In this document: positions 10,885 through 59,057 of the stretch, one piece after another | Numbering within the stretch: position 1 is the stretch's first letter | Layout of the letters: every line of letters begins with the position of its first letter | Source: a virus | Strand: one strand, 5' to 3' | IMG/VR virus record: IMGVR_UViG_3300031715_000002 | Location: 1 to 64,000 of that record | DNA length: 64,000 nucleotides | Program-made: the position numbers and the translations under genes | Notes under the pieces: model-generated | Told to the model about the DNA's origin: nothing | What the model saw: the letters and a program-made list of their open reading frames with translations, nothing else | Databases searched by the model: none

Positions 10885-12681
10885 TTAGTGCTTAACTGAT
10901 GGTCCACTAGAAGATCGGGGGCCGTTGGAGGTGTTGCCTGAAATCGTCGCGCCTTGGAACTGATAGGATCCGCTGTCCCATGCCGTGCTGAGTGGCCGTG
11001 CTATCGCTGTCTGCGCGGGACACACCATAGCGTGCGTGCCAATGTCATAAGAACAGCCATCCGTGGTCTCGTACTTGCAAGCGTTGGCGGCATCGGTACC
11101 GATAGCAGGCTCGGAAGAGAATGCAGCCAAGGCCGTGCAGTAAGATTGATGGTTTGCTCCGGCCAACACGGTTGAATTGCTACTGACAGTCGGCGTGCAT
11201 GGTGTAGTAGAATCGTTGGCGCAATTATTACCGTTGCCGACAGTCCCAGATGAACCGGTGGTGTAGCCTTGCGTGGTTGCCTGCGCGTTCGTTTGGACGA
11301 TGTTGGTTGCGCTGTTGTAGCCTGTGCAACTGTTCGCGCCGCCCGTCGAGTCGTAGAACGGTGTGTTGATGAGCTGGTTGTTGAGGACCGTGAGATATTT
11401 CCCTCCGTTGCTGTTCGTGCTCGGTACGCAGGGGATCTCGAAGTCCACGAATGTGTTGTTGAACATGAACTGCCCGCCGGTGTTCGTGCAACCGTAAGTC
11501 GGCGGTCCGGCATAGGCCCAGCCGTTGCCGCCTTCAGGGGTAACGTCGTAGACGAGGTTGTTAAACCAGTACTCCGGGGCGCTCTCCGGGCAGAACCAGA
11601 AATGAACCTGGCCACTGCCAACTAATCCTGGGTCATCATGCCGCAGGACATTGTTGTAAAACACATTTGCGGTTGAAGGGTTCGCATCATCATTGCATTC
11701 GAGTACGTTGGTGTGCGAACCTGCCCCGGCGTTGTGATTGTACATGTGCTCGAAAATATTGTCGTGGATATCGTGGCAGGCTTGGCCAACTCCTTGGTTG
11801 GTGTAGCGGACGATGCTGTCACGGAAGTGGTTGAACCCAGGAAAAGTCCCCCACGCGCACGACCCTGGGCTGCTGTCCTGTCCATCCACCACAATGTGAT
11901 CGAAGGTCTGGGTGCCGTTGCTTCCGCCGCCGATGAGCGTGCAGGGCTGGTTATTGCCGCCTGTGCCCGCTGTTGTGGTGGCTGTCCAGCCATGGATATA
12001 GGCGTTCGTCAGGAAGGCATCCGCGCCGTTACCTGTGGAGGTCCCGACATAGGCAATGATGGTGTCCTGGGTACCCGAAGTCACGGTACTGTCGGAAGAG
12101 CAGAGGCCAGTAAACTCGAAGTTATCGAGGATTGAGCCACTGGCCATTGACACCATGTTGTTGTTGTCGAGTGGAGAGGGCGTGCCCGCGATCTGATGAG
12201 CACAACTCGCCACCAATGTGGTCGAGGTCGAGTTGTCTCCGGTCATGATAGGACGCGTCCATGAACCGCCCGTGAACCACGTTAGGTCCACGCCGAAATA
12301 CAGGCATCCAGTCTGCGTACCCTCGAATGTGCAGGTGGAGGAAATGTCATGTGTGTAGGTGTAGATGAAAAGATTAAATATGTCCCAAGTTCCCCCCGTG
12401 GCTGGAGCCGTTGAGGTTCCGAAGTGCCAGGTGTCACCGCCGCGAAAGATTATTCCGACTCCTCCGCTTCCAGGGGAGAACGAATTGCAGTTGCTGGAGC
12501 AGTTCGGCATTCCCGGAGCATGGAGCCACGAATGGGTCTCATCGTTTCCGGTGTTGGTGTCCAGACCAGACGCCGAGACGAACACGCAATGCGTGCCGGT
12601 GATCGGGATGCCGAATGGGCAAGCACCCACGGCCCACGCCAATCCGCTCGCCACCAGCAATAGGGCGATAGCCCTTAGCAA
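10885..12681 (-). CDS. Exported parallel beta-helix (pectin-lyase-fold) protein
   Basis: Signal peptide MLRAIALLLVASGLAWA; FVSASGLDTNTG; FYNNV/FNNLV/FNNTF repeats; C-terminal WDSGSYQF. Confidence 0.75.
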   Translation of the reverse strand: MLRAIALLLVASGLAWAVGACPFGIPITGTHCVFVSASGLDTNTGNDETHSWLHAPGMPNCSSNCNSFSPGSGGVGIIFRGGDTWHFGTSTAPATGGTWDIFNLFIYTYTHDISSTCTFEGTQTGCLYFGVDLTWFTGGSWTRPIMTGDNSTSTTLVASCAHQIAGTPSPLDNNNMVSMASGSILDNFEFTGLCSSDSTVTSGTQDTIIAYVGTSTGNGADAFLTNAYIHGWTATTTAGTGGNNQPCTLIGGGSNGTQTFDHIVVDGQDSSPGSCAWGTFPGFNHFRDSIVRYTNQGVGQACHDIHDNIFEHMYNHNAGAGSHTNVLECNDDANPSTANVFYNNVLRHDDPGLVGSGQVHFWFCPESAPEYWFNNLVYDVTPEGGNGWAYAGPPTYGCTNTGGQFMFNNTFVDFEIPCVPSTNSNGGKYLTVLNNQLINTPFYDSTGGANSCTGYNSATNIVQTNAQATTQGYTTGSSGTVGNGNNCANDSTTPCTPTVSSNSTVLAGANHQSYCTALAAFSSEPAIGTDAANACKYETTDGCSYDIGTHAMVCPAQTAIARPLSTAWDSGSYQFQGATISGNTSNGPRSSSGPSVKH

Positions 12682-14093
12682 GGCCCCGCTCCAAGGAGGG
12701 ACATCGTGCAGTTGGTGACTGCTCCGCTAGAGGTCCTGAATGAGGTCAGCAGAGCTTGCCATGGATTGCTCGATAGCTGGGTAACATTGTTAGCCGTGGC
12801 TCCGGATGAGGAATTTAGAACAAAGGCCCAGGCGTTAACCGTGTTGTTAGTGAAGCAGGAGACATTTTCGCCCGCTCCGTCAAATTGGTAGCAGGTCCAC
12901 GGGCTGCCTACCGAGGTAGCATGAGAAAATACGGTCGTGAAGCCAAACAGAATCTCCCCGGCAGCGGAAGGGGTGATGGATGGTGTTGTAATAGTTGCGC
13001 CGGTAGCACCGGAGGCTAAGGCGGAATCCACGTCATGCGTTACTGGGCAACCAGCAGAAGGAATGAACTCGGCGTACGCGACTTGCGCCTCGGTGAAGCC
13101 TCCTCCGGAAGTTGTCATAGTGACGGTTTGTGCACCGACAGCAGTCGTTGAGAGCACGTAGTATAAGCGCGGTTGTCCTGCGGTGCTCCCGGTATTTCCG
13201 ATAACCGACGTTGCAGTAGCCGTTTGACTGCCTACCGTCACGGAGGTAACCGTGCAATCAGTCAGACACCACGTATAGACCACTACTAGATCGCCTAGCT
13301 GCGTAATGTTCGCCGTCGCGGTGGGATTCCCAGAAGCTACTTCCGTTCCGTAGTCGAAGAACCCAATATCCGCAGTCCCAGAGCACGTCTGGTTAGCGCC
13401 TGAACCCTTGATCCCTAATATCATAGAGGCTGTTGTCTGGGAGCACCCCGCGTCGGGGGTAGCGGTCACCGTCGTGATCGATGATAAGATCCCATCCGCC
13501 GCCCAGTTGCCGTTTGGAAATCCGTTGTTGGTTTTGGTAATTCCAGTAGCCGTGATACTGGAGGCATTGGAGCTGCATTCGCCTACCATAATGATTGCTT
13601 CTGCATCAAACCCGTTGTGGAAAGAAATCACTCCAGACCCACCTGCCAAAGGGACAAGGCATAATGCGCCGCCCGCCGACCCGTACTGGCACATCACCAT
13701 CTTGTCGATGGTATTAGTGGTGTCGGTCCCAGAGATTTCCCATACCCAAAAGGCATTCATGGTTCCGCAGGTCGTGCAGGTGATTGCAGTGTTCGAGGCG
13801 TTGGAGCTCTTGACTACCCAGGCGCAGAAGAACTCCGGGGTTACTGTGTGGTAGCAAGAGCCTATCTTGGTGAATGTTGTGCCGCTCCCGCCCGTGGTCT
13901 GCACGCTGGCTGGACTGCTAGTAGAGTCAGTGACCGCGATGAGAGTATGCCCGGCGCTGGTGCTAGTGATCGTTAACGATGAAGACCCGAAGCCGTTTTT
14001 ACGCTGTACGATAGCGGGAGCCGCCGCAACGTTGGGTGCAATAAATACAGCCCCGATCAATATGCCCGAGAGTATTCCAAGGATGGTCTTCAT
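12675..14093 (-). CDS. Exported Thr/Ser/Cys-rich beta-sandwich repeat protein
   Basis: Signal peptide ending VAAA; two similar beta-rich halves. Confidence 0.7.
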   Translation of the reverse strand: MKTILGILSGILIGAVFIAPNVAAAPAIVQRKNGFGSSSLTITSTSAGHTLIAVTDSTSSPASVQTTGGSGTTFTKIGSCYHTVTPEFFCAWVVKSSNASNTAITCTTCGTMNAFWVWEISGTDTTNTIDKMVMCQYGSAGGALCLVPLAGGSGVISFHNGFDAEAIIMVGECSSNASSITATGITKTNNGFPNGNWAADGILSSITTVTATPDAGCSQTTASMILGIKGSGANQTCSGTADIGFFDYGTEVASGNPTATANITQLGDLVVVYTWCLTDCTVTSVTVGSQTATATSVIGNTGSTAGQPRLYYVLSTTAVGAQTVTMTTSGGGFTEAQVAYAEFIPSAGCPVTHDVDSALASGATGATITTPSITPSAAGEILFGFTTVFSHATSVGSPWTCYQFDGAGENVSCFTNNTVNAWAFVLNSSSGATANNVTQLSSNPWQALLTSFRTSSGAVTNCTMSLLGAGPC

Positions 14094-14108
14094 GCGTGCC
14101 TTCCAGGC

Positions 14109-15281
14109 TTACTGCTGTACGTATAGAACGGTCCCAGAGGTCTGTCCCGACCCGGAAAGAAGGAGACAGACATCATCCCCAAGAGTCGCGGTCTTGTTGA
14201 TCATTCCGGACCCCACTCCCGCAACGAATCCGCCATTGGCCGCAAAGTTCCAGCCTGTTGCGGCGGTCGCGCCCCCGGACATTCCAGCAGTGTTAGTTCC
14301 GCAAGTTGACCCCGTGCCTTCAACCAGCGCTATGTTCTGGGCGGTGGCCGTGATCAAAGGGGCTATCGCGCAAAGATATGTCTGCTTGCTGGCCACGCCG
14401 ACTATGATTCTTCCGCTTGCGGTAAGATTTACGGAAGCCACACTTGGCACTTGCTGATTGCATGGGTTGTAAGCCGTTTTCAGGTCCGAACTGGCTTGAG
14501 GTTTGATCGAGACCGTCATGGCTGAGTAGGTCTCGGAGGCAGAGATGGGGATGCTTTGGGTAAAGTTCGGGGCGTTATTGATGACCGCATGGGAGGAGTA
14601 GAAAACTGATAATGCCGCTCCACCAGACGGGGCTGTATTCTGCTGATCCGTTCCGATCAGTCCATTTGGAACAGTAGCGATTGAAACCGATCCAGAAGTC
14701 ACCGTGCCCGCACCCATTCCGACCCACACAGCGGCAAATTCATTCGGCAGAACTGATCCGAATTGGCCGATGCTAAGGGTAGTTGAAGTAGCCTGTACAG
14801 CGCCACTATAATCCCACGACTGCCCCACAGTAACGGCTCCCTTTAATTCGTAGCATGTAAATGCTGCGGCCCCTGAGACTGTAGTGAGCGTAATTGTATC
14901 CGTGGTGCCACCAACAATATTATTGGCTACGGACAAAGCATACCCTGGGGCGGCAGACGCACCGGAAACCACGCTGATATAGGTGTTGCTCTGCGAGTCG
15001 GTAAAGACCGGTACGGCGGAACCGGTGACTGCCGACTCAAACCCGCCGCATACAATCGTATTTCCGGCAGTCGTATTACCAGGAAAGGCATTTGTAAGGG
15101 TGGTTCCGGAGCCAGCAGAAATCTTGTTATTGATCTGGGCGGTTCCTGCCACCGTGGCCACTTGAACAGGAGGGTTTAAGACGCACGGCCCCCACGCTCC
15201 GCTGGACGATTGGCATTGAACGTTCTGCGCACTCAGGCATCCAGCATAAATAACAATTAGGAATAGTAGTCTGCGTTTCAT
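14109..15281 (-). CDS. Exported beta-rich structural/adhesin-like protein
   Basis: MKRRLLFLIVIYAGCLSA-Q; TTAGNTIV and FTDSQSNTY motifs shared with the 23651 gene. Confidence 0.7.
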   Translation of the reverse strand: MKRRLLFLIVIYAGCLSAQNVQCQSSSGAWGPCVLNPPVQVATVAGTAQINNKISAGSGTTLTNAFPGNTTAGNTIVCGGFESAVTGSAVPVFTDSQSNTYISVVSGASAAPGYALSVANNIVGGTTDTITLTTVSGAAAFTCYELKGAVTVGQSWDYSGAVQATSTTLSIGQFGSVLPNEFAAVWVGMGAGTVTSGSVSIATVPNGLIGTDQQNTAPSGGAALSVFYSSHAVINNAPNFTQSIPISASETYSAMTVSIKPQASSDLKTAYNPCNQQVPSVASVNLTASGRIIVGVASKQTYLCAIAPLITATAQNIALVEGTGSTCGTNTAGMSGGATAATGWNFAANGGFVAGVGSGMINKTATLGDDVCLLLSGSGQTSGTVLYVQQ

Positions 15282-17918
15282 TTAGTAAAGCCTCACAAAT
15301 GCGGTAACCGTCGATACGCTTGATGCCGTGGTTTTGACTACACCGACCCCCTCTCCTGTCGTACAACTCACTGATCCATTATCGTGAGCCAATCCGGCTG
15401 TTGATGACGCGCAAAGAATGTCTCCAAATGTGACATTCTGTGTTGCATCAATCACCACACTAGTTTCCCCGGTGGCTACCCACGTGGAGGAAGAGTTGAA
15501 TATCCCAAGAATGTTGTTTGATGGAGTCCCGACACAATTACCAATGGTATTCGAGGCGGTGTAACAAGCCAGATGGCCGCTGGTGATTGTACCTGCCGTG
15601 TCTGTAAATGTCGGGACCTCCGAGCATGATGCCCCAAGTGTACAAACTGTGCCATTTACCGTCACGGAAGAATTTGACAGTTTGGCATTGGCAATGCTTC
15701 CGGCCAGCATGGTGCTAGTAACCGATCCTGTATCTGTAGTGCTCACTATGTTAGCCGCAACCTTTCCAGAATCCGTTAAGGTACAGGTGGTGCTGGAAGT
15801 AGTGCATGAAAGAAGATCCCCTGTAGCAGGAACCGAGGTAGGCCCTAACATAGTGTTGCTGGTTGTGCTCGGAGATGCCCCGACAGTGAAGGTGCCTGAG
15901 CCGGTAGCGTTGCCGAATGCCCACGTGCCAGTGCTGGTACCAGGGACGCCCAATGTAGGAGTGATTGATTCTAAAGGAACACCAGATGAATTAGCTATCA
16001 CGGCCGCACCATTTACCGGCGTCACAAACGTGGTCCCCCCAGTTCCGCCTTGGATCACAATGTCATTTGCCGCGCCGCCGGCGATGTTCGTTGCTGTAGC
16101 GGCCGTTGTTGCGCTGCCAACGTTCAGTGAAGACTGAGCGGTTGATGTAGCCACGTTTGCCACGCCTACCCAGACATTTCCTGTGCTAAGAAATGTGGTC
16201 TCAACTTGCGATCCGTTAACCTGCACCGTGCCGCTTCCCTTACTTTGCAGATTAAGGCTGATGTTGCTGTCGGACCCGGTAGCTCCTAAACCGACCACCG
16301 CCGGATTGGCTGTTGCCGCATTGGTCACAGTCAGAGAATCGACAGCGCTTGCCGTTGCCGAGGACGTCATGAATGGATTTCCGTTGCCGTCGTCAATGGT
16401 CGTGACGTGTGGAGTGGTCAGTACTGGAGATGTGACTAGTGCGAAGTTACCGGACCCGCTTGTGTTGCCGGTAGCATCGGATGGAGTTACCGCGCTGCTG
16501 GTCACTGTCTGCGTAGATCCAGCGAAATGTGCCACGCCCGCGCCAGGACTGGAGGCTACTACTAAATTCGCCGCGACTACGCCGCTGTCCGTCGCCGTGT
16601 GGTTTCCATTGGCCGAAATGACATGACCCGATGTGTAGTTGCTTGAATTTGTGGTGACATTGGCAGCCACTACGCCGCTGTCCACCAGCAGGCCGCCGCC
16701 TGTCCCGCTAAAGCTTGCCAGATCACCGCTGGTATCCGATGCTGGCCCCTGCGTGAGCGGCAGATAGCTTCCGTTGTTCCAACTGCACAGCATCCCGTGC
16801 TGCGTTGAATCGGCATAACAGATATCTACGCCAGAGGCCGCGCCCACACTTGGAACCGTGCCCTCGCCATAGGCATCCACTCCGCCTGTCCCTGCTGTTA
16901 CGGATGGCGGGCTAGTCCCGGTAGATACACTGGCCGCCGTAAATGCCTCAGTTGTGCTAACGGTTGTCCCATTATCCACCACGCTGGAGTCAATGATTGA
17001 GTTAGCGCCGTTTGCCTTTGAGAGATGATTTGTGGTGAGACTCGTGCTGGTCGTGTTACCCGTCCCGCTCGGTGCCGCACAAGCCCCATCACCTCTGAGG
17101 AAGGTGCTACTGGAGCAAGAGCCTGTCCACAGGCCGTACACATCCGAGGATGCCGCATTGCTCAATGCTCCCGTGGTAGTGGTGTTTTTGACGATTCCCG
17201 TGCCCAAGGTGGCCCAATTTTGGTTTGAGGTACCCAACGTTAGGGTAGCCGTGTTCGCCACGCCCGTGCCCCCGTGCGCCGCCGCAATCGTGGTCCCATT
17301 CCACGTACCGGTCATGGTGGAACCAAGCAAAGCCAGCGACCCTCCGCCGCTTGGGAAGGTCCAAGTAGAGGTTGACGGGATGGCAAACGTGGGATTAAAC
17401 GCGCCGGTAAAGAGCAGATTTCCTGCAAGAGTTATGGTATTCGATCCGTTGTTGACGCCGGTACCACCGTAAGTTGCGCCCACCAAGCCGGAATTGATCT
17501 CAGTACCAGAGATGCTTTTGTTTGTCAAAGTCTGAACATCTGTGGTTCCTACCACAGCACCAGCAGGAGCCGCTACGGTAGCAACCGTGCATACGCCAGT
17601 GGTAGTAGAGCAAGTCAGCAACCCGCTGCTGAGCGCGCCAAGGTTGATGGCGTTGGCTGGTTCACTGGTCGATTGGTTGACGAGATAGAACCCGTTCGGA
17701 TTAGCGCCACCACCGCCAGTGCCACACACAGAGCCTGTCCCGCTCGGTACACCGGAATTGTTGACCTGCACGCATTGCGTCCCACCACCAGTGATCGGGA
17801 GCTTTAGCGTACCAAGTCCGCTCAGGTCAAGGCTCCCAGTGGCCGCCGCGTTATAGTTGGCGGATTGACCATAAGCAATCGTAGTTAGAAGTAAAGTAAG
17901 TAGGATTTTTCGCATCAT
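15282..17918 (-). CDS. Tail-fibre-like protein with signal peptide
   Basis: MMRKILLTLLLTTIAYG-Q; fibre-shaft motifs QTLTNKSI, GTWNGTTIAAAHGGTG, TSPVLTTP, SIANAKLSNSSVTVNG. Confidence 0.75.
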   Translation of the reverse strand: MMRKILLTLLLTTIAYGQSANYNAAATGSLDLSGLGTLKLPITGGGTQCVQVNNSGVPSGTGSVCGTGGGGANPNGFYLVNQSTSEPANAINLGALSSGLLTCSTTTGVCTVATVAAPAGAVVGTTDVQTLTNKSISGTEINSGLVGATYGGTGVNNGSNTITLAGNLLFTGAFNPTFAIPSTSTWTFPSGGGSLALLGSTMTGTWNGTTIAAAHGGTGVANTATLTLGTSNQNWATLGTGIVKNTTTTGALSNAASSDVYGLWTGSCSSSTFLRGDGACAAPSGTGNTTSTSLTTNHLSKANGANSIIDSSVVDNGTTVSTTEAFTAASVSTGTSPPSVTAGTGGVDAYGEGTVPSVGAASGVDICYADSTQHGMLCSWNNGSYLPLTQGPASDTSGDLASFSGTGGGLLVDSGVVAANVTTNSSNYTSGHVISANGNHTATDSGVVAANLVVASSPGAGVAHFAGSTQTVTSSAVTPSDATGNTSGSGNFALVTSPVLTTPHVTTIDDGNGNPFMTSSATASAVDSLTVTNAATANPAVVGLGATGSDSNISLNLQSKGSGTVQVNGSQVETTFLSTGNVWVGVANVATSTAQSSLNVGSATTAATATNIAGGAANDIVIQGGTGGTTFVTPVNGAAVIANSSGVPLESITPTLGVPGTSTGTWAFGNATGSGTFTVGASPSTTSNTMLGPTSVPATGDLLSCTTSSTTCTLTDSGKVAANIVSTTDTGSVTSTMLAGSIANAKLSNSSVTVNGTVCTLGASCSEVPTFTDTAGTITSGHLACYTASNTIGNCVGTPSNNILGIFNSSSTWVATGETSVVIDATQNVTFGDILCASSTAGLAHDNGSVSCTTGEGVGVVKTTASSVSTVTAFVRLY

Positions 17919-17947
17919 GGCACCATCGTTAACCGCGATTCCCTACG

Positions 17948-20900: not shown

Positions 20901-21766
20901 ATAGGCGACGACGAGCCGGTGGTCAAGCCGGTGATGCTCAGGACCGCCGAGTCGATAGTATAGAAGTTCCCGCTGTTATCGAAGAGAACCGTATCGATCA
21001 CCGCCAACTTTCCGGAGCCAGCACCTGAAAACGTGGCATATACCCCAGGCGAGTTGAGCAGGATGTTGCCGGGGTTGGTCCACCCGCTCACGCTCGTAGC
21101 CGTTGTGAAGCTGTGCGTACCGCTAAAACCTCCGGTGAAGGGAAAGTCCTGTGGATAAGTAACAAGCTGAACGCCAATACCACTCTGTGTATCGGGAAGA
21201 ACTTCCGGATTGGCCCCCCGAACCATTGAAAGAAACTGCGGATAGGCGTACTGACCGCCAGGAACGTAATAAGCCGTGCTCAAGCTCAGGTCGGGCGGGA
21301 CATCCTCGTTGAAGGTATTTCCCAGGAGAATATTATCCGTCGTAAAAGAACCGGTGGCCGTTCCTCCGCACCCGCTAATCTGGTAATACACGGTTGTTAG
21401 CGGCTTTAGAGAACGAGAGTGGAAATAGCCGTCCAGCGCCCGCTCTGCGGCGCGCTTTCCCAGGATGAAGATTCGAGACGTGCCGTTGTTTACGGACCCG
21501 GTTCGGTTGTCCTGATTGCTCCCGCTATATAGACTCGGGTCCACATCCGCAAGCAGCGGTGATAGAGTTGGCGATTCGCTAGCCGCCACAGTACAGGTGG
21601 TATTCGCAGGAGCCGTGAAGGTGAGTTGGGCCTGCTGGGTGAGCGGCGAGACCGTTACGCTGAAACCACTGCCGGCCGCCGTAGTTCCACTTAGCATCGA
21701 CGGCGCGATCTGAGCCGAGCAGCTGAGCGCCACGAAAAATAGAGAAAATCTCAGTTGTACACCCAT
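17948..21766 (-). CDS. Large exported Cys-rich beta protein (~1270 aa)
   Basis: Likely start ATG 21766 gives MGVQLRFSLFFVALSCSA-Q; G/S/T/C-rich. Confidence 0.75.
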   Translation of the reverse strand: MGVQLRFSLFFVALSCSAQIAPSMLSGTTAAGSGFSVTVSPLTQQAQLTFTAPANTTCTVAASESPTLSPLLADVDPSLYSGSNQDNRTGSVNNGTSRIFILGKRAAERALDGYFHSRSLKPLTTVYYQISGCGGTATGSFTTDNILLGNTFNEDVPPDLSLSTAYYVPGGQYAYPQFLSMVRGANPEVLPDTQSGIGVQLVTYPQDFPFTGGFSGTHSFTTATSVSGWTNPGNILLNSPGVYATFSGAGSGKLAVIDTVLFDNSGNFYTIDSAVLSITGLTTGSSSPIIACPTVNNANCWPTNGTTKTQTANLTGSLSTVTLGTTTPILDSWTPAGSSPLLGQQQSLYGDMQQRSGNVNVDGSGNVSLVIPTQNSITNFNLNWSPGSIVTIGSSVCIITSAVTITAFTITPSACSPALTVPVSSAPYSATNFGWLIWTTDTVNTIKIQYATYSITSSLPVQWPASGSPDLFDLTQLTNSTTGHAGYLMQVPGTGFYFFDTVTGQGNALSTINYPSKAGTDGWGNGSGQACNNASTTITGSGPFKIYCTGLDNTGTEVLITFPPSSTLQPGSWNWNSGTNLTPSSINADLLSLLVNFTTGQTPSFNKTTFSTQGCGISGLQQWSNGDPLLIGDCVQSQQDTYGWVYSFDPVATTNGQAGNAGCVSALGGGPGCVMAAMSTWGGGSSTSPNRWCTLHTLFSAGQANTSTMWIAGKTLTNGGSAGQSFQTSTVSSGTIGTSPQFAPGTGGCPGGVPHGCNTLTLAAQPNGSDGFIQNIAVGDVISFQGGGSGENVQVLSTSGGSTPTISVSRGVSDSGLCTSSGGSACPSGTITLYMQCSAAVPHGSESWTWNYTTDPHGLNGGGQVATAYYIDHPTPRPSYVVGADGWSANPGEPPTGGYAALTSLTASSPTYYLSLAPLFGGIKGIPQFVEAAQDHTSGYGDSQTSANYMVDFRTGETMDTVNSPTSKTGTAIHISGNTYYYAGTTSNGDDFNGIGGSGIANSLNRKVQPTMAFCGTQPLTDISGPASGLPGTYQYCEARTTTECGGGRTQGDIVFTCPNLVPLPLGGIGLFSQNDVGFFNTGAWLNAPSQYSWANGTDPNAQYARGLGHFLTRQRFLNVNANGRVTPDGSWYLTWCIAVNGVWNAVCASRLPSFPTPDAVQRWNPVPYTINITASGGSTAARVDFGYFENGSAPTDYHCMTRLDKCQAVTATIPASPQIFSWGSESATGLFCPVSCTIQVPALSRHFLYYQVELLIGGTWMPQGLQVARIQ

Positions 21767-23649
21767 GAGCCACCCAGACAACGTACCGGGGCATGAACAC
21801 TCCCGGTTGTGCTTGGAGCAGCCAGGTAAGCCGGGCTGCTGGCGTTGGTCACCAGTCCGACCATGCGCTCCAGAACCGAACTGCAAGCTGGTAGGCCGCT
21901 GATCGTAGTGGGTGGGTTGTAAAAGTTCTCAATCCCGGCTATGGAAGTGACGTGCGAGAGGCCGGCAGAGGAAAGAGGAACGGAAATCTTCCCGTTTACA
22001 TTGACGGGAGCAGTGATGGCCATGCTGCTTACACTGCCCTGGGCGTCTACCAAATAGGGAGTGGCCGAAAATGACCCATTGTCGCTTACCCACCCATCGA
22101 CCTGAAGATTGGTTACCGGATTGATGGTCTGAAGCAAGAAAGCCCCGCTGGAACCGGCCGCGCTGGTATTCCTGTATAGCCCCACGTTCTTCACGATCAA
22201 GTTGCTTATCGTATTCTGAACGTTGACGCACGATGGTGCCAGGGGATTTGATGTAAGTTCGTTGGTGCAGTCGCTGTTCACCACGCTAATCGTGTTCCAT
22301 GAACCAACTGACTGGTATACGGGAGCTTGGACGGAGTGGGCATCGGAGACAAAGATTGGTCCGTTTGAATCGGCAGCCGTCAAGCCATTCCCGCTGGCCA
22401 TGTATACCAGGGCCTGCGTGACAACTGACCCCGCATCAACAGTGACTCCGTTGATTCTGATGTTCGTCAAAGGAAAAGCGCACGAGCCAGCACTGTTATA
22501 GCCCGCGACGGCAGAGAAGACATTCCCGACCTCTTCAGACTCAATATTCACATTGTCGATGGGGCCACAGTGACCCTCGGGGGCATTCAGCGCGATATCG
22601 GTGTCTGTGGTGGATGCCGTAGTGCCGGCCATGCCGCAGTAGTTTCTTGAGAAAAAAACGTCCTTCTCTGGACCATCCATATGGCGGCAATCTCGCCCTG
22701 ATCCACTTGGAACTGATATCCACGTCCCCGCCGTGTGAACGTTGATGTCTCGGTCGTAGAGAATACCGTATGATGGCGTGTTGAATATCCGGACGTTATC
22801 GATCCATAGGCCGTCTGTGTTGGCAATGTGGATGCCCGTGCAGTTCGCAGTGCCGTTGGAACAGCCATTGCCGGCCGCGATATTCGGCGCGTTCATGTTT
22901 ATGGAAAGATCCCGAATAACGATGTTCGACCCAGTAGCTCCTGGCGTAACCGTCGTGCTAATGGTCGCCGTTCCGCTGCAAGTGGCTGTTCCGTTGCTCG
23001 CCACAACAGTGGTGGGCGCTGACGTGAAGTTTCCGGGGAACGTGATCGTGAGCGCCGTACCGCCAGCAATCGTATTTGTGCCGGTCAGGGCTACAGTGGC
23101 TGTGGCTGGTATCCACCCAGGAGACACGTTGTTGAACGAGGTGAGCGTGCACGTCTGCGTGACGCTCCCGGTCGCCGTGATGCCGCTCGTATAAGTTCCC
23201 GACGCCAATCCTCCAGGTGGAGCCGCGTTGTTCAGATTGTTGGCGTATCCATTGGTGATCGCGCTGTCGGTTGCGCCTGCCTCCATGAAGATCCCGGCTC
23301 CTGGCGTTATGCCCTGAATGGCGCAAAATCCTCCGGTTGGGCATTGAATATGAGCGCTTAAGGCGATGCCTTGATCCAAGAGAATTACTACCGGGTTGGT
23401 CGCGCTGGCCCCAGACCAAGCCGCATTTATCAGGCCAGCATTTGCGCTCCCAGGATCTGAGCACGAGGGGTTCAGGACGTAAGGGCTAATCGTGCAGCCG
23501 CCCGTAACTCCTAGCTGAGAAGACAGGAAAGTTTTCGCGGTTGTGGAGACTTTTCCTTTGAATACAGTGTCCACGTTTACGCTAGTCTGCGGAGCAGACT
23601 GCATAGCGATTGCGAGGAACGCGATAACTAAGGCCGATTTAGTCTTCAT
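21751..23649 (-). CDS. Exported tailspike-like beta-helix protein (putative glycan-binding or depolymerase)
   Basis: Signal peptide; NIVIRDLSINMN, IDNVRIFNTPSYGI; C-terminal TISGLPAC..VTNA..PVRC..W spike-type motif. Confidence 0.7.
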   Translation of the reverse strand: MKTKSALVIAFLAIAMQSAPQTSVNVDTVFKGKVSTTAKTFLSSQLGVTGGCTISPYVLNPSCSDPGSANAGLINAAWSGASATNPVVILLDQGIALSAHIQCPTGGFCAIQGITPGAGIFMEAGATDSAITNGYANNLNNAAPPGGLASGTYTSGITATGSVTQTCTLTSFNNVSPGWIPATATVALTGTNTIAGGTALTITFPGNFTSAPTTVVASNGTATCSGTATISTTVTPGATGSNIVIRDLSINMNAPNIAAGNGCSNGTANCTGIHIANTDGLWIDNVRIFNTPSYGILYDRDINVHTAGTWISVPSGSGRDCRHMDGPEKDVFFSRNYCGMAGTTASTTDTDIALNAPEGHCGPIDNVNIESEEVGNVFSAVAGYNSAGSCAFPLTNIRINGVTVDAGSVVTQALVYMASGNGLTAADSNGPIFVSDAHSVQAPVYQSVGSWNTISVVNSDCTNELTSNPLAPSCVNVQNTISNLIVKNVGLYRNTSAAGSSGAFLLQTINPVTNLQVDGWVSDNGSFSATPYLVDAQGSVSSMAITAPVNVNGKISVPLSSAGLSHVTSIAGIENFYNPPTTISGLPACSSVLERMVGLVTNASSPAYLAAPSTTGSVHAPVRCLGGSWVYN

Positions 23650-23650
23650 A

Positions 23651-24751
23651 TTAGTGCTGCTTGAGTGCCACTACGACGCTGGTCCCGGCCGCTCCCGGAG
23701 TGGCTGGACAATTGAAAGACGGAGTACAAGCTAAATATGGATTGAAGGTCCCAGTGCTGCTAACGATCTGATCATACACCGCCTCCTTCCATTGAGACTG
23801 GGAAGTACTTGCCGTGGGTTGCCTGAAGTTCCAGGTTGACGACACGCTAGCGCAAGTCGAGCCAAAAGCCACATTTCCAGCTAGGCAGGTATTTCCGTTA
23901 CCGGAGTCGAGAGCCGATATTGCCAGGACGAGATCAGCAGCGTTGGTTGTGGTGACCCCAGACACACTCCCTAACGCGCAACCATTGGTAACTGTTTGGC
24001 ATCCATCGTTGACAACGCTCGACGCAGCGTCCACGGTCAGAATTGGACCATTCGCGTATTCAATCATCGTAACTGCAAATAAGGAAGTCCCTGTCGATGT
24101 GTTAGTCGTAGCCGTAACTGTAAATGTCCCGGTTGAACCAGAGACTATACTACCGAATAGTTGGAAATTAGCGAACCCTAAAGATTGGGTTACCAAAGAC
24201 GAGTAGGAGTTGCCTGTCTGGTTATCTGTGGGTGTCCCGAACGTTATGGCGGCTCCCGAAGTTTGATTTTGCGCGGCTGGAATTACTAGGATGGTGTCGC
24301 CTACCGTCGGCGTGGAACCGAAAGAGCAGTTTAGCGTGGCCACCCCCAAAGATCCTTGGCAGTATTGTTGCTGGACAAAGGTCGTGGCTGGACCGCTAAT
24401 AGTGTACGCTGCATTGCTGGTGTTGCTGTTCGTCTGTCCGACCTGCGTGGCGTACGCATACAGAGTCTCGGTCGTGGAGACTGAGACTGTCGTGGTGTAG
24501 GTCGTCCATCCGGCTCCGCACGTGCCAGCCGTCCCACCTTGAGACAGATTTGAAGTGGCGTAGCATCCGGTGGAGCCGCCAGGGTAGGTAATCGTGACGG
24601 TCTGCGTGCTGCTATACGACCCAGCAGGTGGAGAAAATGTCGGGGCCGCAAGTTGAACGGGAGGCTTATTAGAGCCAAAGAACCCAGAAGGCTGCGCCCA
24701 GGCAGCGACAGAAAACAGCACGCTAATTGAAATTTTTATTGAAATTTGCAT
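23651..24751 (-). CDS. Exported protein with Fn3-associated/CHB_HEX_C-like domain
   Basis: Start 24751 gives MQISIKISISVLFSVAAWA-Q; AAPTFSPPAGSYSSTQTVTI...AAYTI. Confidence 0.72.
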   Translation of the reverse strand: MQISIKISISVLFSVAAWAQPSGFFGSNKPPVQLAAPTFSPPAGSYSSTQTVTITYPGGSTGCYATSNLSQGGTAGTCGAGWTTYTTTVSVSTTETLYAYATQVGQTNSNTSNAAYTISGPATTFVQQQYCQGSLGVATLNCSFGSTPTVGDTILVIPAAQNQTSGAAITFGTPTDNQTGNSYSSLVTQSLGFANFQLFGSIVSGSTGTFTVTATTNTSTGTSLFAVTMIEYANGPILTVDAASSVVNDGCQTVTNGCALGSVSGVTTTNAADLVLAISALDSGNGNTCLAGNVAFGSTCASVSSTWNFRQPTASTSQSQWKEAVYDQIVSSTGTFNPYLACTPSFNCPATPGAAGTSVVVALKQH

Positions 24752-25394
24752 AGCACGCAGTAGCTCCGCTGTCGTATGTGAAGCTGAGGACATCTATCGC
24801 GTTGGCTCCAGCGGAAGGCGTGACGGCTCCGCCACCGCCGCCGCTTACCTTCCAGGTGCAGCCTGTTCCGAGTGTCAACCCCTCTCCGCCCGTGGAATCC
24901 TGAATTATCTTGGCCGTGTAGAACCCGCCGTTTACCAAGCCTGTCAAATTAAGAGTTCGGCTACCAGAGTGAACAGTGAAGGTCAAGGTCGCCTGCGCAT
25001 TTAGAACCGAGCCAATCGCCCACGTAACTGTCGCTCCGTCAGTGAGAGTAGTCCATGAAGAAGCAGCGAGGCCGGCCGGTGGCAAGCCTGTGACGTTTGT
25101 TAACGTGCCGCTGGAAGGCGTACCGAGCGCTCCGCCCGTAACGACCAGGGCGTTAGCGAACGTGTTGGTGGCACTGCAATGATGAGGAACGTAGCTGGCT
25201 GCGCTGTCGAACCACCAATCTTTGCCGGGCGTGCAGTTGGTGGGCGCGGTGGTCGCGGCAATCTGGTAGGCCGTCTTCTGGTTGATCTCAGCCGCAGCCG
25301 TAGTGGAATTGCTTGCCGATGTCGCCCACTGCGCGATGGCCGGCGCGATAGCGAGAAATGGACACACTGATAGGGCTATCAAAAATTTCTTCAT
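24723..25394 (-). CDS. Exported short tail-fibre-like protein
   Basis: MKKFLIALS...AIA-Q; ALGTPSSGTLTNVTGLP shaft motif; TLTDGATVTW..IIQDSTGG..ANAIDVLSF tip domain. Confidence 0.75.
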   Translation of the reverse strand: MKKFLIALSVCPFLAIAPAIAQWATSASNSTTAAAEINQKTAYQIAATTAPTNCTPGKDWWFDSAASYVPHHCSATNTFANALVVTGGALGTPSSGTLTNVTGLPPAGLAASSWTTLTDGATVTWAIGSVLNAQATLTFTVHSGSRTLNLTGLVNGGFYTAKIIQDSTGGEGLTLGTGCTWKVSGGGGGAVTPSAGANAIDVLSFTYDSGATACYANFNKNFN

Positions 25395-25402
25395 GTTTTA
25401 CC

Positions 25403-27061
25403 TCAGTTCACAATGACGCCGGTCCACTGTGCGTTCGTTAGGATTCCAGTCCATTGACCATTGGTTAGGTTGCCATGCCATGACAACCCTGCACTGCCAC
25501 CCGTTGCTCCTCCAACAACTAAGCAATTAAGTGTCTCGGATGACACATCGGTAATGTTCAAGCTGTTGGATGCAAGGTTCGCGAAAGGTACGCCGATAAC
25601 AGCCACTCCAGTGGAGTTGAAGCAAGTCACGCTGGCGGTGTAGGGACTGGCTAGGTTCAGACTATGAGTGATCGTGTATGGCGTGCCACCAGTGACGCTG
25701 ATGGAGTTGGCATTATAAGTCGTTCCTCCGCCGCTATTTCCACCGCTGCTGTTGATAGCCAGATATCCGCTTTGAGAGCCCGCGAAGGCCACTACAACGG
25801 TGAATGCTGACGACACAGTTATAGAGCTTGGCGTGATCTGGTTAGCCGGGCTGGAATTGTCGTATGCCGTAACGCTCAGAGCCGTTGTCGAGATTCCGTG
25901 TGTACTGGTCCCGTTACAGCCAGTGCCGACCGTAACTGTGACAACAGTCTGGCTGGTGAAGTTTATTTGGCAGCCCGTGCTAGTAGCGCCAGTTGACCCA
26001 GTCGGACCAGTGCTGCCAGACGGTCCCGTGGAACCCGTTACCCCCGTGATTCCGGTCGAGCCTGTCGGTCCAGTTGGACCGGTTGGTCCTGTGCTACCAG
26101 TAGCGCCTGTGCTTCCCGTCGCACCGTTAGTGCCATTCGTGCCAGCGGTTCCTGTAGCTCCCGTAGGACCAGTTGGTCCCGTTGGACCAGTGGCACCAGT
26201 TGGTCCCGTAGCTCCTCCACCGCCTCCACCTGTTTGGCAGAATACGGTTCCGTTGTACCCGAAGGCATAGGCGAAGCCCCCGACTAATGCACCCGCTGAT
26301 AGATTTGTAGCGCAGTCTGATAACTTGAGAGTCTTTGCGCCAAGGCTCGCAACGTTGAGCGTGCTCGATCCTGTATTCGTGGTCTGCGGGATGAAAACGA
26401 CAAATAGGCCGCTCAGCGTTGTGACGTTCGGAACTGGCGTCGGGCAAGTATAGGTTGTAGTGCTGCCGCTGGCATCGACGCACAGAGCGTTGTTGCCAGT
26501 GCCTGGCGTTCCCGTGGCACCAGTTGGTCCTGTTGCGCCGGTTGATCCGGAAGGACCAGCATTGCCTGTAACTCCAGTAGGACCAGTGGCACCGGTCGCT
26601 CCATTAGATCCAGCAGTTCCTGTTACTCCAGTAGGTCCCGTTGATCCGGTAGCCCCTGTTGCTCCATTGGCCCCAGTCGCACCTGCTGGCCCTGTGCCAT
26701 TTCCGTTGACCACGCACGTGATGTTAGCCGTAGATGAGAAGTTAAATACTACGCTTGTGACCGTGCTCGTGTTTCCGATAGTGTAGGCCGTGAACGGCGT
26801 AAATGGCCCGCTGCCTGTTCCGGTAAAACAGAACGTGATGATGTAGTTGAGGCTTGTGAGATTGAGCGCCGTGGTGTTGACGGCGAGTGTCGTAACTGCG
26901 GGAGTCGATTGGGCAAAGGCATTCGGCCCGCCAGCCACAGCTAAGTTGGAGTTGGGGACGCACCCGAGTTGCCCATTAGGCAGCGCGCCAAGATGGCCGT
27001 TAGCGCCGCACTGAGCAGCCAACGTGCCCGCAAACGCCAAGGCTATCAGGATTGTTTTCAT
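25403..27061 (-). CDS. Exported collagen-like (G-X-T repeat) fibre protein
   Basis: [17 protein letters not shown]; two long GAT/GPT/GST triplet tracts. Confidence 0.85.
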
Positions 27062-27083
27062 AATCAGAAAATTCTCAAGCTGC

Positions 27084-27440
27084 CTAGTAGTAAGTCAGGC
27101 TCGCCCGGTTGTTCCAGATGTTTGCGAATGTGGATGAGCCTACAGCCCATTGCGTTTGTGTCAGGTTCGATCCTGAGTAGGTAAACTTTTGGATGGCCCA
27201 AACCGCTTTAGTTGCATCAGGCGGTCCGCTACTCAGCGCCCATCCGATGTACAGGATGTTCGATCCACCGCCGTAATCGTAGAGTTTGCTGATGGCAAAA
27301 TCCGGGGGCGCATCGGTAGGAACGCAATCGTAGATAGCGCGGTGCGATGTGCTTTGCGCGTTGACTGTCGTCCCGGAGTTGAAACTGCCTGCCAGAAACC
27401 CAAACAGGATGCAAGCGAATGCGAGAGACTTTCGAGACAT
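27084..27440 (-). CDS. Small phage structural-type protein with signal peptide
   Basis: ...TVNA-Q; [21 protein letters not shown] motif. Confidence 0.7.
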
Positions 27441-28012
27441 TAGGTAGCCACTCCTTTTGCAGCGGCTAACGCTGCCTGCACTTCGTGGTCGTTGATGATT
27501 TCAAGTAGCGTGTCCGCGTAGCTCGGGGAGGTCGCGTATATCGGCGCGAAGGCGCGCACGCATTTATCGAGATTAACGTCTTGCTGGTACTGCTGCATGA
27601 TGGCAGCGTAAGGGGCGCGCGTGAACAGATTGGCGCGGTAGGCGAAACAATCGGCTAGCGTGGCGAAGGACGCGAACCAGTCCAGCACGTGGTACTTGTT
27701 TACGGCATTGCTGTGTTTGTCATACGTGGGCTTGTAAGTCTGATCAAGCGTTGCTGTGCGCCCACGGTCAAGCGCAAGAAATTGCGTTCGCTGCGCATCA
27801 GTGAAGTATTCTGTGGTCGGACAGAGTTTTTCGCTCCACTGGCCGGTGTACGCCTTGATCCCAAGCGCATTGTTCTCACCGCTCATGTAATCCAGCCAGC
27901 CGCTCTCCAGCGCTGCCTGTGCCATCACGATTACAGCGGGGCATGTGGGCACAAGCACTTCACAACGGACAGATGCTTGCGCAAGGGATTGCAGGACAGT
28001 GGGGGTTTTCAT
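27440..28012 (-). CDS. Endolysin, GH73 glucosaminidase/FlgJ-like
   Basis: AQAALESGW, NALGIKA, TTEY, YATSPSYA motifs. Confidence 0.88.
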   Translation of the reverse strand: MKTPTVLQSLAQASVRCEVLVPTCPAVIVMAQAALESGWLDYMSGENNALGIKAYTGQWSEKLCPTTEYFTDAQRTQFLALDRGRTATLDQTYKPTYDKHSNAVNKYHVLDWFASFATLADCFAYRANLFTRAPYAAIMQQYQQDVNLDKCVRAFAPIYATSPSYADTLLEIINDHEVQAALAAAKGVAT

Positions 28013-28042
28013 TTCTGCGCTATTTGTGCCACAATAGGAGAA

Positions 28043-59037: not shown

Positions 59038-59057
59038 GGATTTTGCTATCTTCCGTC

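Follow-up and report, generated by a model that had tools for sequence, protein, structure and literature searches.

Ten leader-bearing fibre-, knob- and beta-helix-type genes within the lysis region of a siphovirus-like phage of soil Acidobacteria: a putative exported cassette

Introduction

Multi-spike phages encode, as does the locus described here, several different glycan-directed proteins per genome. Tailspikes TSP1-4 of CBA120, those of HK620 and Sf6, and the capsule depolymerases of Klebsiella and Acinetobacter match the beta-helix of one gene of this locus (gene 10; Z 14.5-16.5), and the knob of another (gene 3) matches the N-terminal domain of TSP4 and the C-terminal domain of a tailspike (Z 8.4-8.8). 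However, such spikes lack a signal peptide, fold in the cytoplasm, are encoded by tail-module genes and have defined N-terminal particle-binding or adaptor domains. Tailspike-like beta-helices are also known from polysaccharide biosynthesis clusters, namely WceF of Pantoea stewartii (6tgf) and RbmB of Vibrio cholerae (9ozl). Gene 10 matches both (Z 14.5-17.1) and its host homologues lie in a similar cluster, but gene 10 itself is phage-borne, stands beside nine other putatively exported proteins, is placed with lysis genes and is known from its sequence and predicted fold.

Leader-bearing proteins related to phages have been described in two bacteria. The MAT fibres of Bdellovibrio bacteriovorus are leader-bearing, mosaic and trimeric, derive from phage tail-fibre parts and are displayed outside the cytoplasm (PMC10769870). 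Homologues of gene 7 pair leaders with Peptidase_S74, as many MAT proteins do. Nevertheless, MAT genes belong to the chromosome of a predatory bacterium and have no virion genes around them, whereas the present array is part of a complete phage genome that also encodes head, tail and lysis proteins, and Pfam gave no Peptidase_S74 match in any of its ten proteins. In Porphyromonas gingivalis prophages, five genes of unknown function whose leaders leave an N-terminal Gln were read as outer-membrane modifiers (PMC10367356), and exposure of Gln by signal peptidase I is a rule in Bacteroidetes (PMC5837995). The array likewise is phage-encoded with predicted signal-peptidase-I cleavage exposing Gln; the prophages, however, are temperate, belong to another host phylum and do not carry fibre/spike arrays in a lytic-type late operon.

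Two cultured phages are also comparable. In Cellulophaga phage phi10:1 (KC821618.1), gp091-gp095 are consecutive leader-bearing genes, as in the array, located after tail genes and before a holin-like gene, and each has a Sec-type leader ending ...AQ or ...GQ. GenBank annotates gp091-094 as 'structural protein ... experimental MS/MS proteomics', a detection that could come from material co-purified with particles, and gp095 as a pectate lyase. Unlike the array, phi10:1 has a Bacteroidota host and five such genes instead of ten, in the tail-fibre slot, with proteins that have few Cys (0-2) and a milder depletion of charge; no similarity in sequence to the array genes was detected. By analogy, and with unrelated proteins, phi10:1 thus offers indirect support for leader-bearing fibres reaching particles. 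Tunturiibacter phage Tunturi 1 (PP887698), a cultured Acidobacteriota phage, has leaders cut before Gln in gp12, gp13, gp14, gp16 and gp17. These genes adjoin a tail protein and are annotated as tail spike or virion structural protein; as in the array, the products are large, of low charge (4-8%) and with up to 32 Cys. Tunturi 1 differs in being a 63-kb podovirus, and its annotations come from similarity, not proteomics. The paper describing it makes no mention of signal peptides (PMC11924767). No such leaders occurred on the tail-module proteins checked in the cultured siphovirus Tunturi 4. Our literature search found no paper discussing the phi10:1 leaders and none describing exported fibre/spike arrays for tailed phages.

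Results

Genomic context of the array

The window analysed comprises 64,000 nucleotides (positions 1 to 64,000 of IMG/VR record IMGVR_UViG_3300031715_000002) of a complete, siphovirus-like genome of 96.2 kb, from a phage whose host group is soil Acidobacteria. Ten back-to-back minus-strand ORFs occupy 27440-10885, with the endolysin on one side and holin-like genes on the other, and they also lie between the large terminase and the portal genes. The flanking features are as follows.

32829..34127, minus strand: large terminase, the upstream limit of the packaging module, which is interrupted by the array (Pfam Terminase_6N and Terminase_6C)
27440..28171, minus strand: endolysin with a glucosaminidase domain, without leader (Pfam PF01832, 7.6e-13, and PHROG endolysin matches)
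9333..9671, minus strand: holin candidate of 112 aa downstream of the array, with one or two hydrophobic segments (weak PHROG holin matches, 5.6e-4, and hydropathy)
8286..8663, minus strand: second small membrane protein of 125 aa, with a single hydrophobic segment (hydropathy only), possibly a lysis partner
6735..8237, minus strand: portal protein, at the downstream edge of the array region and followed by head genes (Pfam Portal_Mu, 1.7e-28; PHROG 113, 8.6e-75)

Neighbouring genes within the array are separated by at most 29 bases or overlap by at most 29 bases, and the final base of the endolysin stop codon is also the first base of gene 1, so that the ORF list bears out the tightly coupled ten-gene run after the endolysin reported in the initial annotation. 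From its sequence, the endolysin is likely to start at an internal ATG (MKTPTV...). The tail module sits apart from the array, at genome positions 64-82 kb, and has its own leaderless collagen-like fibre and a spike. This 741-aa spike has a longer hydrophobic segment, more anchor-like than the array leaders. The complete 96-kb record gave no match to tyrosine integrase (PF00589) or serine recombinase (PF00239), and neither a resolvase nor an integrase was found in the genome.

Leaders and composition of the array proteins

The ten genes, with the evidence for each and the predicted leader cut marked by a slash where given, are listed below.

27084..27440, minus strand: gene 1, small leader-bearing protein, 118 aa, ...TVNA/QSTSH (ORF and leader test)
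25403..27061, minus strand: gene 2, collagen-like protein, 552 aa, TLAA/QCG (Pfam Collagen, 2.5e-15; PHROG tail-fibre families via the collagen blocks)
24723..25394, minus strand: gene 3, knob protein, 223 aa, AIA/QW (alignment, AF2, BFVD, PDB fold search, trimer model)
23651..24751, minus strand: gene 4, 366 aa from the internal start MQISIK..., AWA/QP (ORF and leader test)
21751..23649, minus strand: gene 5, leader-bearing protein, 632 aa (homologue comparison)
17948..21766, minus strand: gene 6, 1272 aa from MGVQLRF..., CSA/QI (ORF and leader test)
15282..17918, minus strand: gene 7, G/S/T-rich mosaic fibre shaft, 878 aa, AYG/QS (homologue modules)
14109..15281, minus strand: gene 8, 390 aa, LSA/QN (ORF and leader test)
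12675..14093, minus strand: gene 9, leader-bearing protein, 472 aa (homologue comparison)
10885..12681, minus strand: gene 10, right-handed beta-helix, 598 aa, AWA/VGAC (AF2, fold search, homologues)

Leaders were called by a heuristic of our own, not by SignalP, that looks for a basic n-region, an uncharged hydrophobic stretch of at least 10 residues and a small -3/-1 site; start codons were scanned in one way for the array genes and for the other ORFs. All ten array genes present these three elements, and a Sec-type leader was assigned to 10/10 of them vs 4/104 of the remaining ORFs in this 96-kb genome (Fisher p = 1.5e-11). The leaders of genes 4 and 6 depend on in-frame internal starts, at 24751 and 21766 respectively. 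As controls, the portal, MuF, major capsid, tape measure and terminase proteins were not flagged by the same heuristic. Gln occupies position +1 in seven of the ten proteins, preceded by A/G-x-A/G. The leaders differ in sequence among the ten, and neither a shared N-terminal adaptor module nor paralogy was found among them. Leaders are also present in homologues of four families (93/120, 74/120, 90/119 for gene 7 and 104/150 for gene 10).

The array proteins are rich in G+S+T+A+N (47-66% vs 35% elsewhere) and poor in K+R+D+E (1.4-10% vs 21% elsewhere), and this bias in charge and in G/S/T is restricted to the array. Mature Cys counts for genes 1 to 10 are 1, 12, 4, 10, 16, 28, 16, 8, 16 and 22, an even number in 9/10. 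The Sec signal peptides that had been proposed for all ten proteins, as well as their description as Cys-containing and G/S/T-rich, agree with these data. Given the leader statistics, the Cys parity, the leader-bearing homologues and the Gln at +1, export and periplasmic disulfide formation are well supported as predictions from sequence.

Predicted folds and homologues

Gene 2 encodes, after the leader, an N-terminal Cys loop, two collagen G-X-Y blocks (at about residues 123-190 and 280-360) and a C-terminal domain. Charged residues are only 1.4% of this protein, and it matches PF01391 in three stretches with 56.4 bits (cut-off 27.2).

In gene 3 the leader is followed by a linker with a GTPSSGTLTN motif and by a C-terminal beta-sandwich knob of 110 aa, in which the alignment shows two Cys, C179 and C214, to be invariant. 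AF2 modelled residues 110-223 with a pLDDT of about 95, and the knob had 205 viral matches in BFVD. The top six matches of an unbiased PDB search were phage spikes or baseplate proteins (Z 8.4-9.1), after which Z dropped to 5.8 and 4.2; clear matches were limited to phage spike, baseplate and fibre proteins, and the fold resembles docking domains of the TSP4 and gp10 types. The knob is predicted to be a homotrimer: the trimer model of residues 100-223 scored 0.93 vs 0.00 for the best control, with contact agreement of at least 74% and partner pLDDT of at least 88 in the runs. The mark was reached in calibration by 20/30 solved pairs and 1/23 single chains, and resemblance to phage trimers of solved structure may account for the pass. 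A pattern scan found the knob in 16 viral contigs and in none of 185,579 species genomes. Some relatives of gene 3 consist of leader and knob only (about 105 mature residues), a poor fit with a fibre, which requires an attachment end.

Gene 7 is built of short modules common to 165 homologues at 70-87% identity, some of which bear Peptidase_S74, pectate-lyase-like, K1-lyase_C, collagen or knob domains. Its shaft modules thus also occur in bearers of tail-fibre chaperone domains. One weak match to gene 7 was obtained in 151 genomes of the Acidobacteriaceae family. Some array members are true phage-appendage proteins.

Genes 9 and 10 come from host operons. Gene 10 has 666 representative homologues and 139 matches in Acidobacteriota genomes, and it is up to 71% identical, in a colinear way over residues 8-580, to a secreted protein of Acidobacteriaceae exopolysaccharide operons that bears the same kind of leader. 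The operon around this host homologue encodes AsnB, deacetylase, FemAB/GNAT, GT2, GT4 and pyruvyl transferase. Since colinearity with the host protein is end to end, there is no room in gene 10 for a particle-docking domain. The host counterpart of gene 9, a leader-bearing protein of about 260 aa, follows the gene-10 homologue in these operons and is 48-49% identical to the C-terminal half of gene 9 (residues 224-461). The AF2 model of gene 10 (pTM 0.87) matched lyases, RbmB, WceF and tailspikes with Z 15-19, including BT_1002 (Z 18.8, 322 aligned residues, rmsd 3.9) and Pel9A (Z 18.6, 358 aligned residues, rmsd 4.2). According to this model, gene 10 has the fold of polysaccharide lyases/hydrolases (PL6/PL9/GH136-like and tailspike-like). 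The alignment of the family revealed invariant His/Asp columns (H54, D83, H230, D266, D269 and H323).

No fold assignment was reached for the other five proteins. Gene 5 contains, at residues 147-235, an 88-aa mobile domain that is found at 60-70% identity in more than 130 otherwise unrelated, mostly leader-bearing proteins; no relatives were found for the rest of gene 5, and it had no PDB sequence match. Gene 1 had no family match in Pfam or PHROG and no homologue in the loci compared, and gene 4 had no Pfam or PHROG match. Gene 6 matched no known family, and neither it nor gene 8, which has an N-terminal Cys loop, was found in the 151 Acidobacteriaceae-family genomes searched; the only lead for gene 6 was an Atlas one (0.75), to an all-viral cluster. 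Thus, among the motifs recognised in the initial annotation, the collagen of gene 2, the fibre-type knob of gene 3 and the beta-helix, located in gene 10, were recovered, whereas the Fn3-associated domain was not recovered in gene 4.

Finally, leader-bearing arrays recur in about 50 viral loci, and leader-bearing low-charge genes reach 2.2 per 10 kb in viral loci vs 0.54 in bacterial loci. In smaller related-type phages such genes occupy the tail-fibre slot. Relatives with head genes 50-65% identical have their array content replaced: the number of such genes seen in them ranges from zero within 10 kb of the portal to 7, and their content is unrelated. Replaced content beside kept head genes is typical of host-range genes.

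Discussion

We hold with moderate confidence that the ten genes form a cassette, expressed late and exchanged rapidly, for Sec-exported, disulfide-stabilised proteins that would bind or cut the envelope polysaccharide of Acidobacteriaceae. Export itself, cleavage of the leaders, the disulfides, their timing and any docking onto particles are what we infer from the features described above. Weighing against this explanation are the place of the array apart from the tail module with its leaderless fibre, the lack of an adaptor or of paralogy among the ten, the host-like extent of gene 10, the leader-plus-knob relatives of gene 3 and the five proteins that received no fold.

A possible but rather unlikely alternative is that none of the ten proteins joins the particle. 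They would be secreted or periplasmic enzymes and lectins that strip or mask exopolysaccharide or receptor around lysis, so that the progeny escape the matrix and avoid loss on debris, a role in receptor destruction or masking that recalls T5 Llp and free phage depolymerases. This would suit an array embedded in the lysis cassette and not in the tail module, which already supplies a fibre and a spike, and also genes 10 and 9 as copies of secreted proteins of host exopolysaccharide operons, the fold matches of gene 10 to the matrix-modifying RbmB and WceF, and the existence of minimal leader-plus-knob proteins. However, particle-bound fibres are built from knob, collagen and mosaic shaft modules, and the smaller related-type phages, Tunturi 1 and phi10:1 hold their leader-bearing genes in the tail-fibre slot, those of phi10:1 being annotated particle proteins. 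In addition, a cytoplasmic protein would also be freed at lysis, and export must therefore add something, for example disulfides.

In the full model of the initial annotation, all ten proteins would form a single branched coat that binds glycans or acts as a depolymerase and is joined to the particle at lysis or later. Its export and disulfides, and its several fibre and spike types, agree with our results; as a whole this model is improbable. It can draw on the existence of multi-spike phages, with the CBA120 TSP structures among the fold matches, on the resemblance of the knob to domains that serve as docking platforms in TSP4 and gp10-type proteins, and on the expression and export route common to all ten. 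Nevertheless, the array is outside the tail module, the ten proteins have neither a common adaptor module nor paralogy, gene 10 adds no domain to those of the host enzyme, and the number and content of such genes vary among relatives as described above. Ten or eleven different appendages would also be exceptional on a 96-kb siphovirus.

It is slightly less probable still that the N-terminal segments are uncleaved membrane anchors or assembly helices and that the proteins are retained in the cytoplasm or at its membrane. The leaders were called by a heuristic, and the 741-aa spike of the tail module does have an anchor-like segment. Against this, the array segments have the canonical n/h/c layout, with A-x-A before Gln in most; Cys parity persists once the leader is removed; the host homologue of gene 10 has a similar leader; and the leader sequences are not conserved, unlike those of an assembly helix.

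The least probable explanation is lysogenic conversion, also raised in the initial annotation, in which prophage-made proteins would be displayed on the host surface to act as adhesins or to exclude superinfecting phages: although P. gingivalis prophage proteins with N-terminal-Gln leaders and chromosomal leader-bearing fibre proteins such as the MAT family are precedents, it is weak because no integrase or resolvase was found in the complete genome and the genes are in a late operon, co-oriented and coupled with lysis and morphogenesis genes, and the knob is confined to viral contigs in the pattern scan.

Under the exported-cassette explanation that we favour, the array would be transcribed together with the endolysin, holin, terminase, portal and head genes. 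The preproteins would cross the inner membrane via the host Sec system, and signal peptidase I would cut the leader, mostly exposing Gln. Folding, trimerisation of the fibre-like members and disulfide formation would follow in the periplasm; most likely, then, the ten proteins fold outside the cytoplasm, the compartment where the particle is built. They would meet the cytoplasm-built particles and the exopolysaccharide only once holin and endolysin open the envelope. At lysis, particles would acquire the fibre-like products of genes 2, 3 and 7 by docking, while the enzyme-like gene 10 product, with that of gene 9, would act as a free depolymerase like its host counterparts. A mix of particle-bound fibres and free enzymes would thus be expected from this cassette.

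Genome organization and position of the array

The virus record is 96,199 bp long and complete by CheckV, and the window is its initial 64 kb, in which the minus strand holds nearly all genes. The ten genes studied here (the array) are consecutive and are numbered from gene 1, at the 27440 end, to gene 10.

Features of the phage genome around the array
34127-32829, minus strand: large terminase, first in transcription order, then small genes
28171-27440, minus strand: glucosaminidase endolysin, upstream of the array
27440-10885, minus strand: array of ten genes, between the endolysin and five small ORFs
3' of the array: the five small ORFs, of which two contain hydrophobic segments and one matches holins weakly
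8237-6735, minus strand: portal, then a MuF-like head protein and protease fusion
Past the record ends, in transcription order: major capsid protein, glycosyltransferase cluster, tape measure
After the tape measure: 1575-aa tail protein, leaderless collagen-like fibre (737 aa)
End of the tail module: 741-aa pectate-lyase-like spike, glycosyltransferase fusion

Large terminase and portal genes are usually adjacent. In this genome they are separated by about 24.6 kb (window 6735-34127) containing small genes, the endolysin, the array and holin-like genes. From this gene order, the array is located inside the lysis cassette, distant from the tail module, and splits terminase from portal. In two relatives (L013 and L014), genes bearing predicted Sec-type N-terminal export signals (leaders) likewise adjoin the terminase. 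A promoter and terminator scan of 8.3-28.3 kb gave counts no higher than chance. The scan was thus uninformative, and it is only the gene spacing, which ranges within the array from a 29-base gap to a 29-base overlap, that suggests co-transcription of the array with the late genes.

Glycosyltransferase-like genes lie among the head, connector and tail genes (L003:918-5408 and L002:164-2416 in the rest of the record; genome 64-89 kb), and these include PHROG matches to a beta-1,4-glycosyltransferase and to an alpha-2,3-sialyltransferase-like family. An ISL3-family transposase (DDE_Tnp_ISL3, 1.6e-29, plus a HTH domain) is found at window 39925-40599. In addition, the plus strand at 59036-59257 contains a simple repeat, reading (Arg-Thr)n / (Arg-Pro-Arg-Thr)n and antisense to minus-strand genes, which is probably a hexanucleotide microsatellite and not a gene.

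Predicted export signals, composition and cysteine content

The initial annotation had proposed that all ten genes encode Cys-containing, G/S/T-rich proteins with Sec signal peptides, and each of these points was borne out. By a heuristic, a leader (basic n-region, uncharged hydrophobic core, small residues at -3/-1) was identified in every member, that of genes 4 and 6 being seen from in-frame internal starts. The calls combine this heuristic with homologue evidence, and identical start scanning was applied to all 114 called ORFs; 10 of 10 array genes were positive vs 4 of the 104 other ORFs (Fisher p = 1.5e-11). Two of those four are the 741-aa spike of the tail module and a probably spurious antisense ORF. 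Leaders also prevail among the homologues of four families (93/120, 74/120, 104/150 and 90/119). Charged residues account for 1.4-10% of the ten proteins vs 21% elsewhere, and G/S/T/A/N for 47-66% vs 35%. After the predicted leader, genes 1-10 encode 1, 12, 4, 10, 16, 28, 16, 8, 16 and 22 cysteines, respectively. The count is even in nine of them (chance about 0.01), as disulfide pairing would predict. We consider it very probable that the array proteins are exported, have their leaders cleaved and form disulfides in the periplasm.

The first residue after predicted cleavage (+1) is Gln at seven of the ten sites, and this also occurs in leader-bearing proteins of the Tunturiibacter phage Tunturi 1 (L138) and in many metagenomic homologues. 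Cleavage exposing an N-terminal Gln has been presented as a Bacteroidetes-specific rule in a work that does not mention Acidobacteria (PMC5837995); the rule may extend to Acidobacteriota. A lipoprotein reading was rejected, as none of the leaders has a lipobox directly before Cys. By-eye inspection of the ten C-termini gave neither T9SS nor PEP-CTERM sorting tails.

Directly after the gene 2 leader (window 26960-27015) there is a Cys-loop motif, Q-C-G-x(5-9)-N-P-x-T/N-G-x-x-D/G-C, which recurs in the unrelated leader-bearing proteins P0046, P0108, P0178, P0209 and P0508. At their mature N-termini, genes 8 and 10 likewise have two Cys enclosing a loop of about ten residues, and such a loop might serve as a common handle. 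Outside the window, the 741-aa gene of the tail module (L002:2897-5122, genome 66897-69122), directly 3' of the leaderless collagen-like fibre, encodes a protein with an N-terminal hydrophobic segment MINKEKTRRIAGLLLGLFALLFC..., 10 Cys, 7% charged residues and a pectate-lyase-like beta-helix (PF12708, 27.4 bits for a cut-off of 27). The protein seems to be an eleventh member of this class, placed in the canonical spike slot.

Identity of genes 1-8

All-against-all blastp revealed no paralogy among the ten, nor with the tail-module proteins. Of the motif readings made initially, collagen in gene 2 was confirmed by Pfam and PHROGs and the Fn3-associated domain in gene 4 was not recovered; at strict and loose thresholds of both databases, the collagen repeats were the sole match among the ten. 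No homologue of gene 1 or of the small downstream ORFs was found in any compared locus.

The C-terminal domain of gene 3 (223 aa), of 110 residues (the knob), is conserved at 50-70% identity across hundreds of metagenomic proteins, with two invariant cysteines, and was modelled by AlphaFold with a pLDDT of about 95. Foldseek matched it to 205 viral proteins at E <= 0.001, many named tail fibre. Unbiased alignment against 48,161 PDB chains gave phage virion proteins in the top six places (Z 8.4-9.1), followed by scores of 5.8 and then 4.2. The six include the Pa223 capsid spike, the KP1 baseplate protein, an Acinetobacter phage tailspike, the N-terminal region of CBA120 TSP4 (two crystal forms) and the chaperone-substrate complex 6o38, which we take to be the phage Mu fibre with its chaperone. 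Three copies of gene 3 were predicted to form a trimer with a score of 0.93 vs 0.00 for the best control, on a scale whose mark was reached by 20 of 30 solved pairs and 1 of 23 single chains; contact agreement was at least 74% and pLDDT at least 88. This predicted trimer may reflect likeness to solved phage trimers.

Gene 5 contains one mobile domain of 88 residues (residues 147-235, window 22945-23211; SGTYTSGITATGS...TATCSGTATIS), covered by no Pfam family, that recurs with 60-70% identity, at any chain position, in over 130 proteins that show no other relation to one another and for the most part bear leaders; Terracidiphilus MAG proteins are among them. The IMG/VR scan with gene 5 gave no close relative, and that with gene 7 gave one locus. 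Gene 7 consists in part of short modules common, at 70-87% identity, to 165 proteins, some of which end in Peptidase_S74, K1-lyase_C, pectate-lyase-like, collagen or knob domains. For gene 6, the ESM Atlas provided a lead only (0.75), to an all-viral unnamed cluster. Against PDB sequences, phmmer returned no usable match for genes 5, 6 and 7, and against GenBank phages tblastn returned none at all for genes 3 and 7. A search of 151 host-family genomes detected neither gene 6 nor gene 8 and gave one weak match on a tiny contig for gene 7; its positive control, gene 10, was recovered in only 5 of the 151.

Genes 9 and 10 and the host exopolysaccharide operon

The gene 10 family has 666 representatives at E <= 0.001. 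Its model is a right-handed beta-helix (pTM 0.87) similar to polysaccharide lyases and hydrolases, the Vibrio matrix lyase RbmB and phage tailspikes (Z 15-19), as well as to Pantoea WceF (Z 14.5). A scan of one genome per species detected 139 relatives, almost all in Acidobacteriota (Acidobacteriaceae, Terracidiphilus, Edaphobacter, Silvibacterium bohemicum, Sulfotelmatobacter), the best chromosomal match having 71% identity over residues 8-580. Compared with the host protein, phage gene 10 has no extra domain.

In an Acidobacteriaceae MAG, the host homologue belongs to a long operon (L057:682-20369) with an AsnB-type amidotransferase, a polysaccharide deacetylase, FemAB/GNAT acyltransferases, GT2 and GT4 glycosyltransferases, a methyltransferase and a pyruvyl transferase, and judging from this gene content the operon is an exopolysaccharide biosynthesis locus. 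The gene directly 3' of the gene 10 homologue encodes a leader-bearing product of about 260 aa, which matches gene 9 over the C-terminal half of the latter at 48-49% identity. Together, the two matches relate genes 9 and 10 to a pair of secreted host proteins. Next in the operon comes a protein of about 500 aa with low charge and no Pfam match that probably spans the membrane; the secreted beta-helix protein, the secreted protein of about 260 aa and this one form a conserved trio, whose setting (AsnB-type amidotransferase, FemAB-like, deacetylase) resembles exosortase-linked loci.

The gene 10 family is also present in 35 viral contigs, where leader-bearing low-charge genes around it reach 2.2 per 10 kb vs 0.54 around bacterial copies. 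Through its link with this operon, gene 10 allows the host to be placed concretely in the Acidobacteriaceae, offers a candidate substrate and suggests a route by which bacteriophages acquire depolymerases.

Leader-bearing genes in other bacteriophages

In portal relatives (63-70% portal identity) the head genes are 50-65% identical and none of the ten was detected upstream of the portal. Different leader-bearing genes adjoin the terminase or portal in L011, L013 and L014; in L006 and L015 none was found within 10 kb. Sixteen knob-bearing contigs mostly show runs of 2-5 leader-bearing, Cys-rich, low-charge genes, often directly 3' of large leaderless proteins and in some cases preceding small membrane proteins, which would be the position expected for tail fibres. 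PHROGs gave no identity for these large and small neighbours. The knob had no confirmed relative in 185,579 species genomes, in a single-pattern scan that is not proof of absence.

Two cultured bacteriophages display similar genes. In the Cellulophaga phage phi10:1 (KC821618.1), gp091-094, located after the tail genes, have clear leaders and are annotated in GenBank as structural on MS/MS evidence; gp095, a pectate lyase, bears a leader too. In the podovirus Tunturi 1 (PP887698), which infects an Acidobacteriota host, gp12-14, gp16 and gp17 have leaders cut before Gln, 4-8% charged residues and up to 32 Cys; signal peptides are nowhere mentioned in the paper describing it (PMC11924767).

Possible destination of the array proteins

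Docking to particles is favoured by the fibre-type building blocks, by an array content that turns over as is typical of host-range genes, by the tail-slot position of leader-bearing genes in other bacteriophages and by the proteomics annotation of phi10:1. Against docking, at least of some members, stand the location in the lysis/packaging region, a tail module already equipped with fibre and spike, the absence of an adaptor common to the ten, the colinearity of gene 10 with a host enzyme over its whole length and the existence of minimal leader-plus-knob proteins. The best reading of these data is that the array is a mixed cassette of fibre-like and enzyme-like members. The former would attach to particles once the holin opens the membrane, and the latter would act as free depolymerases against the host exopolysaccharide. 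The single branched coat of all ten proteins proposed initially is improbable. Lysogenic conversion by these proteins is improbable too; searches of the phage record found neither a tyrosine integrase nor a serine recombinase (resolvase).

More broadly, we tentatively propose, as a possibility that we still regard as rather doubtful, a two-compartment assembly in many tailed phages of Acidobacteriota and Bacteroidota, in which head and tail would be made in the cytoplasm and fibres and spikes would be Sec-exported, disulfide-bonded in the periplasm and attached at holin opening, some spikes being captured host exopolysaccharide-processing enzymes that kept their native export signal.

In textbooks, the assembly of tailed phages is entirely cytoplasmic. 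A survey took the absence of signal peptides on phage-encoded binding proteins to support their phage origin (PMC6199706), and in Porphyromonas gingivalis prophages there are leader-bearing proteins, of unknown function, that are left with an N-terminal Gln after cleavage (PMC10367356). In our literature searches, no account of tailed phages with exported receptor-binding proteins came up. Phage fibres, spikes and depolymerases are known kinds of protein and the export route is a variant that we did not find in print, latent in the GenBank records of cultured phages. Specific to this window are the size of the array, its place between endolysin and holin as well as between terminase and portal, and the fact that two members connect directly to a host exopolysaccharide operon.

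Cultured systems for tests exist in Tunturi 1/Tunturiibacter and phi10:1/Cellulophaga. If the host-recognition proteins of abundant soil phages mature in the periplasm, this would call for changed annotation rules and revised models of the last assembly step, would bear on host-range prediction, and would mean that recombinant soil-phage depolymerases have to be folded under oxidising conditions.
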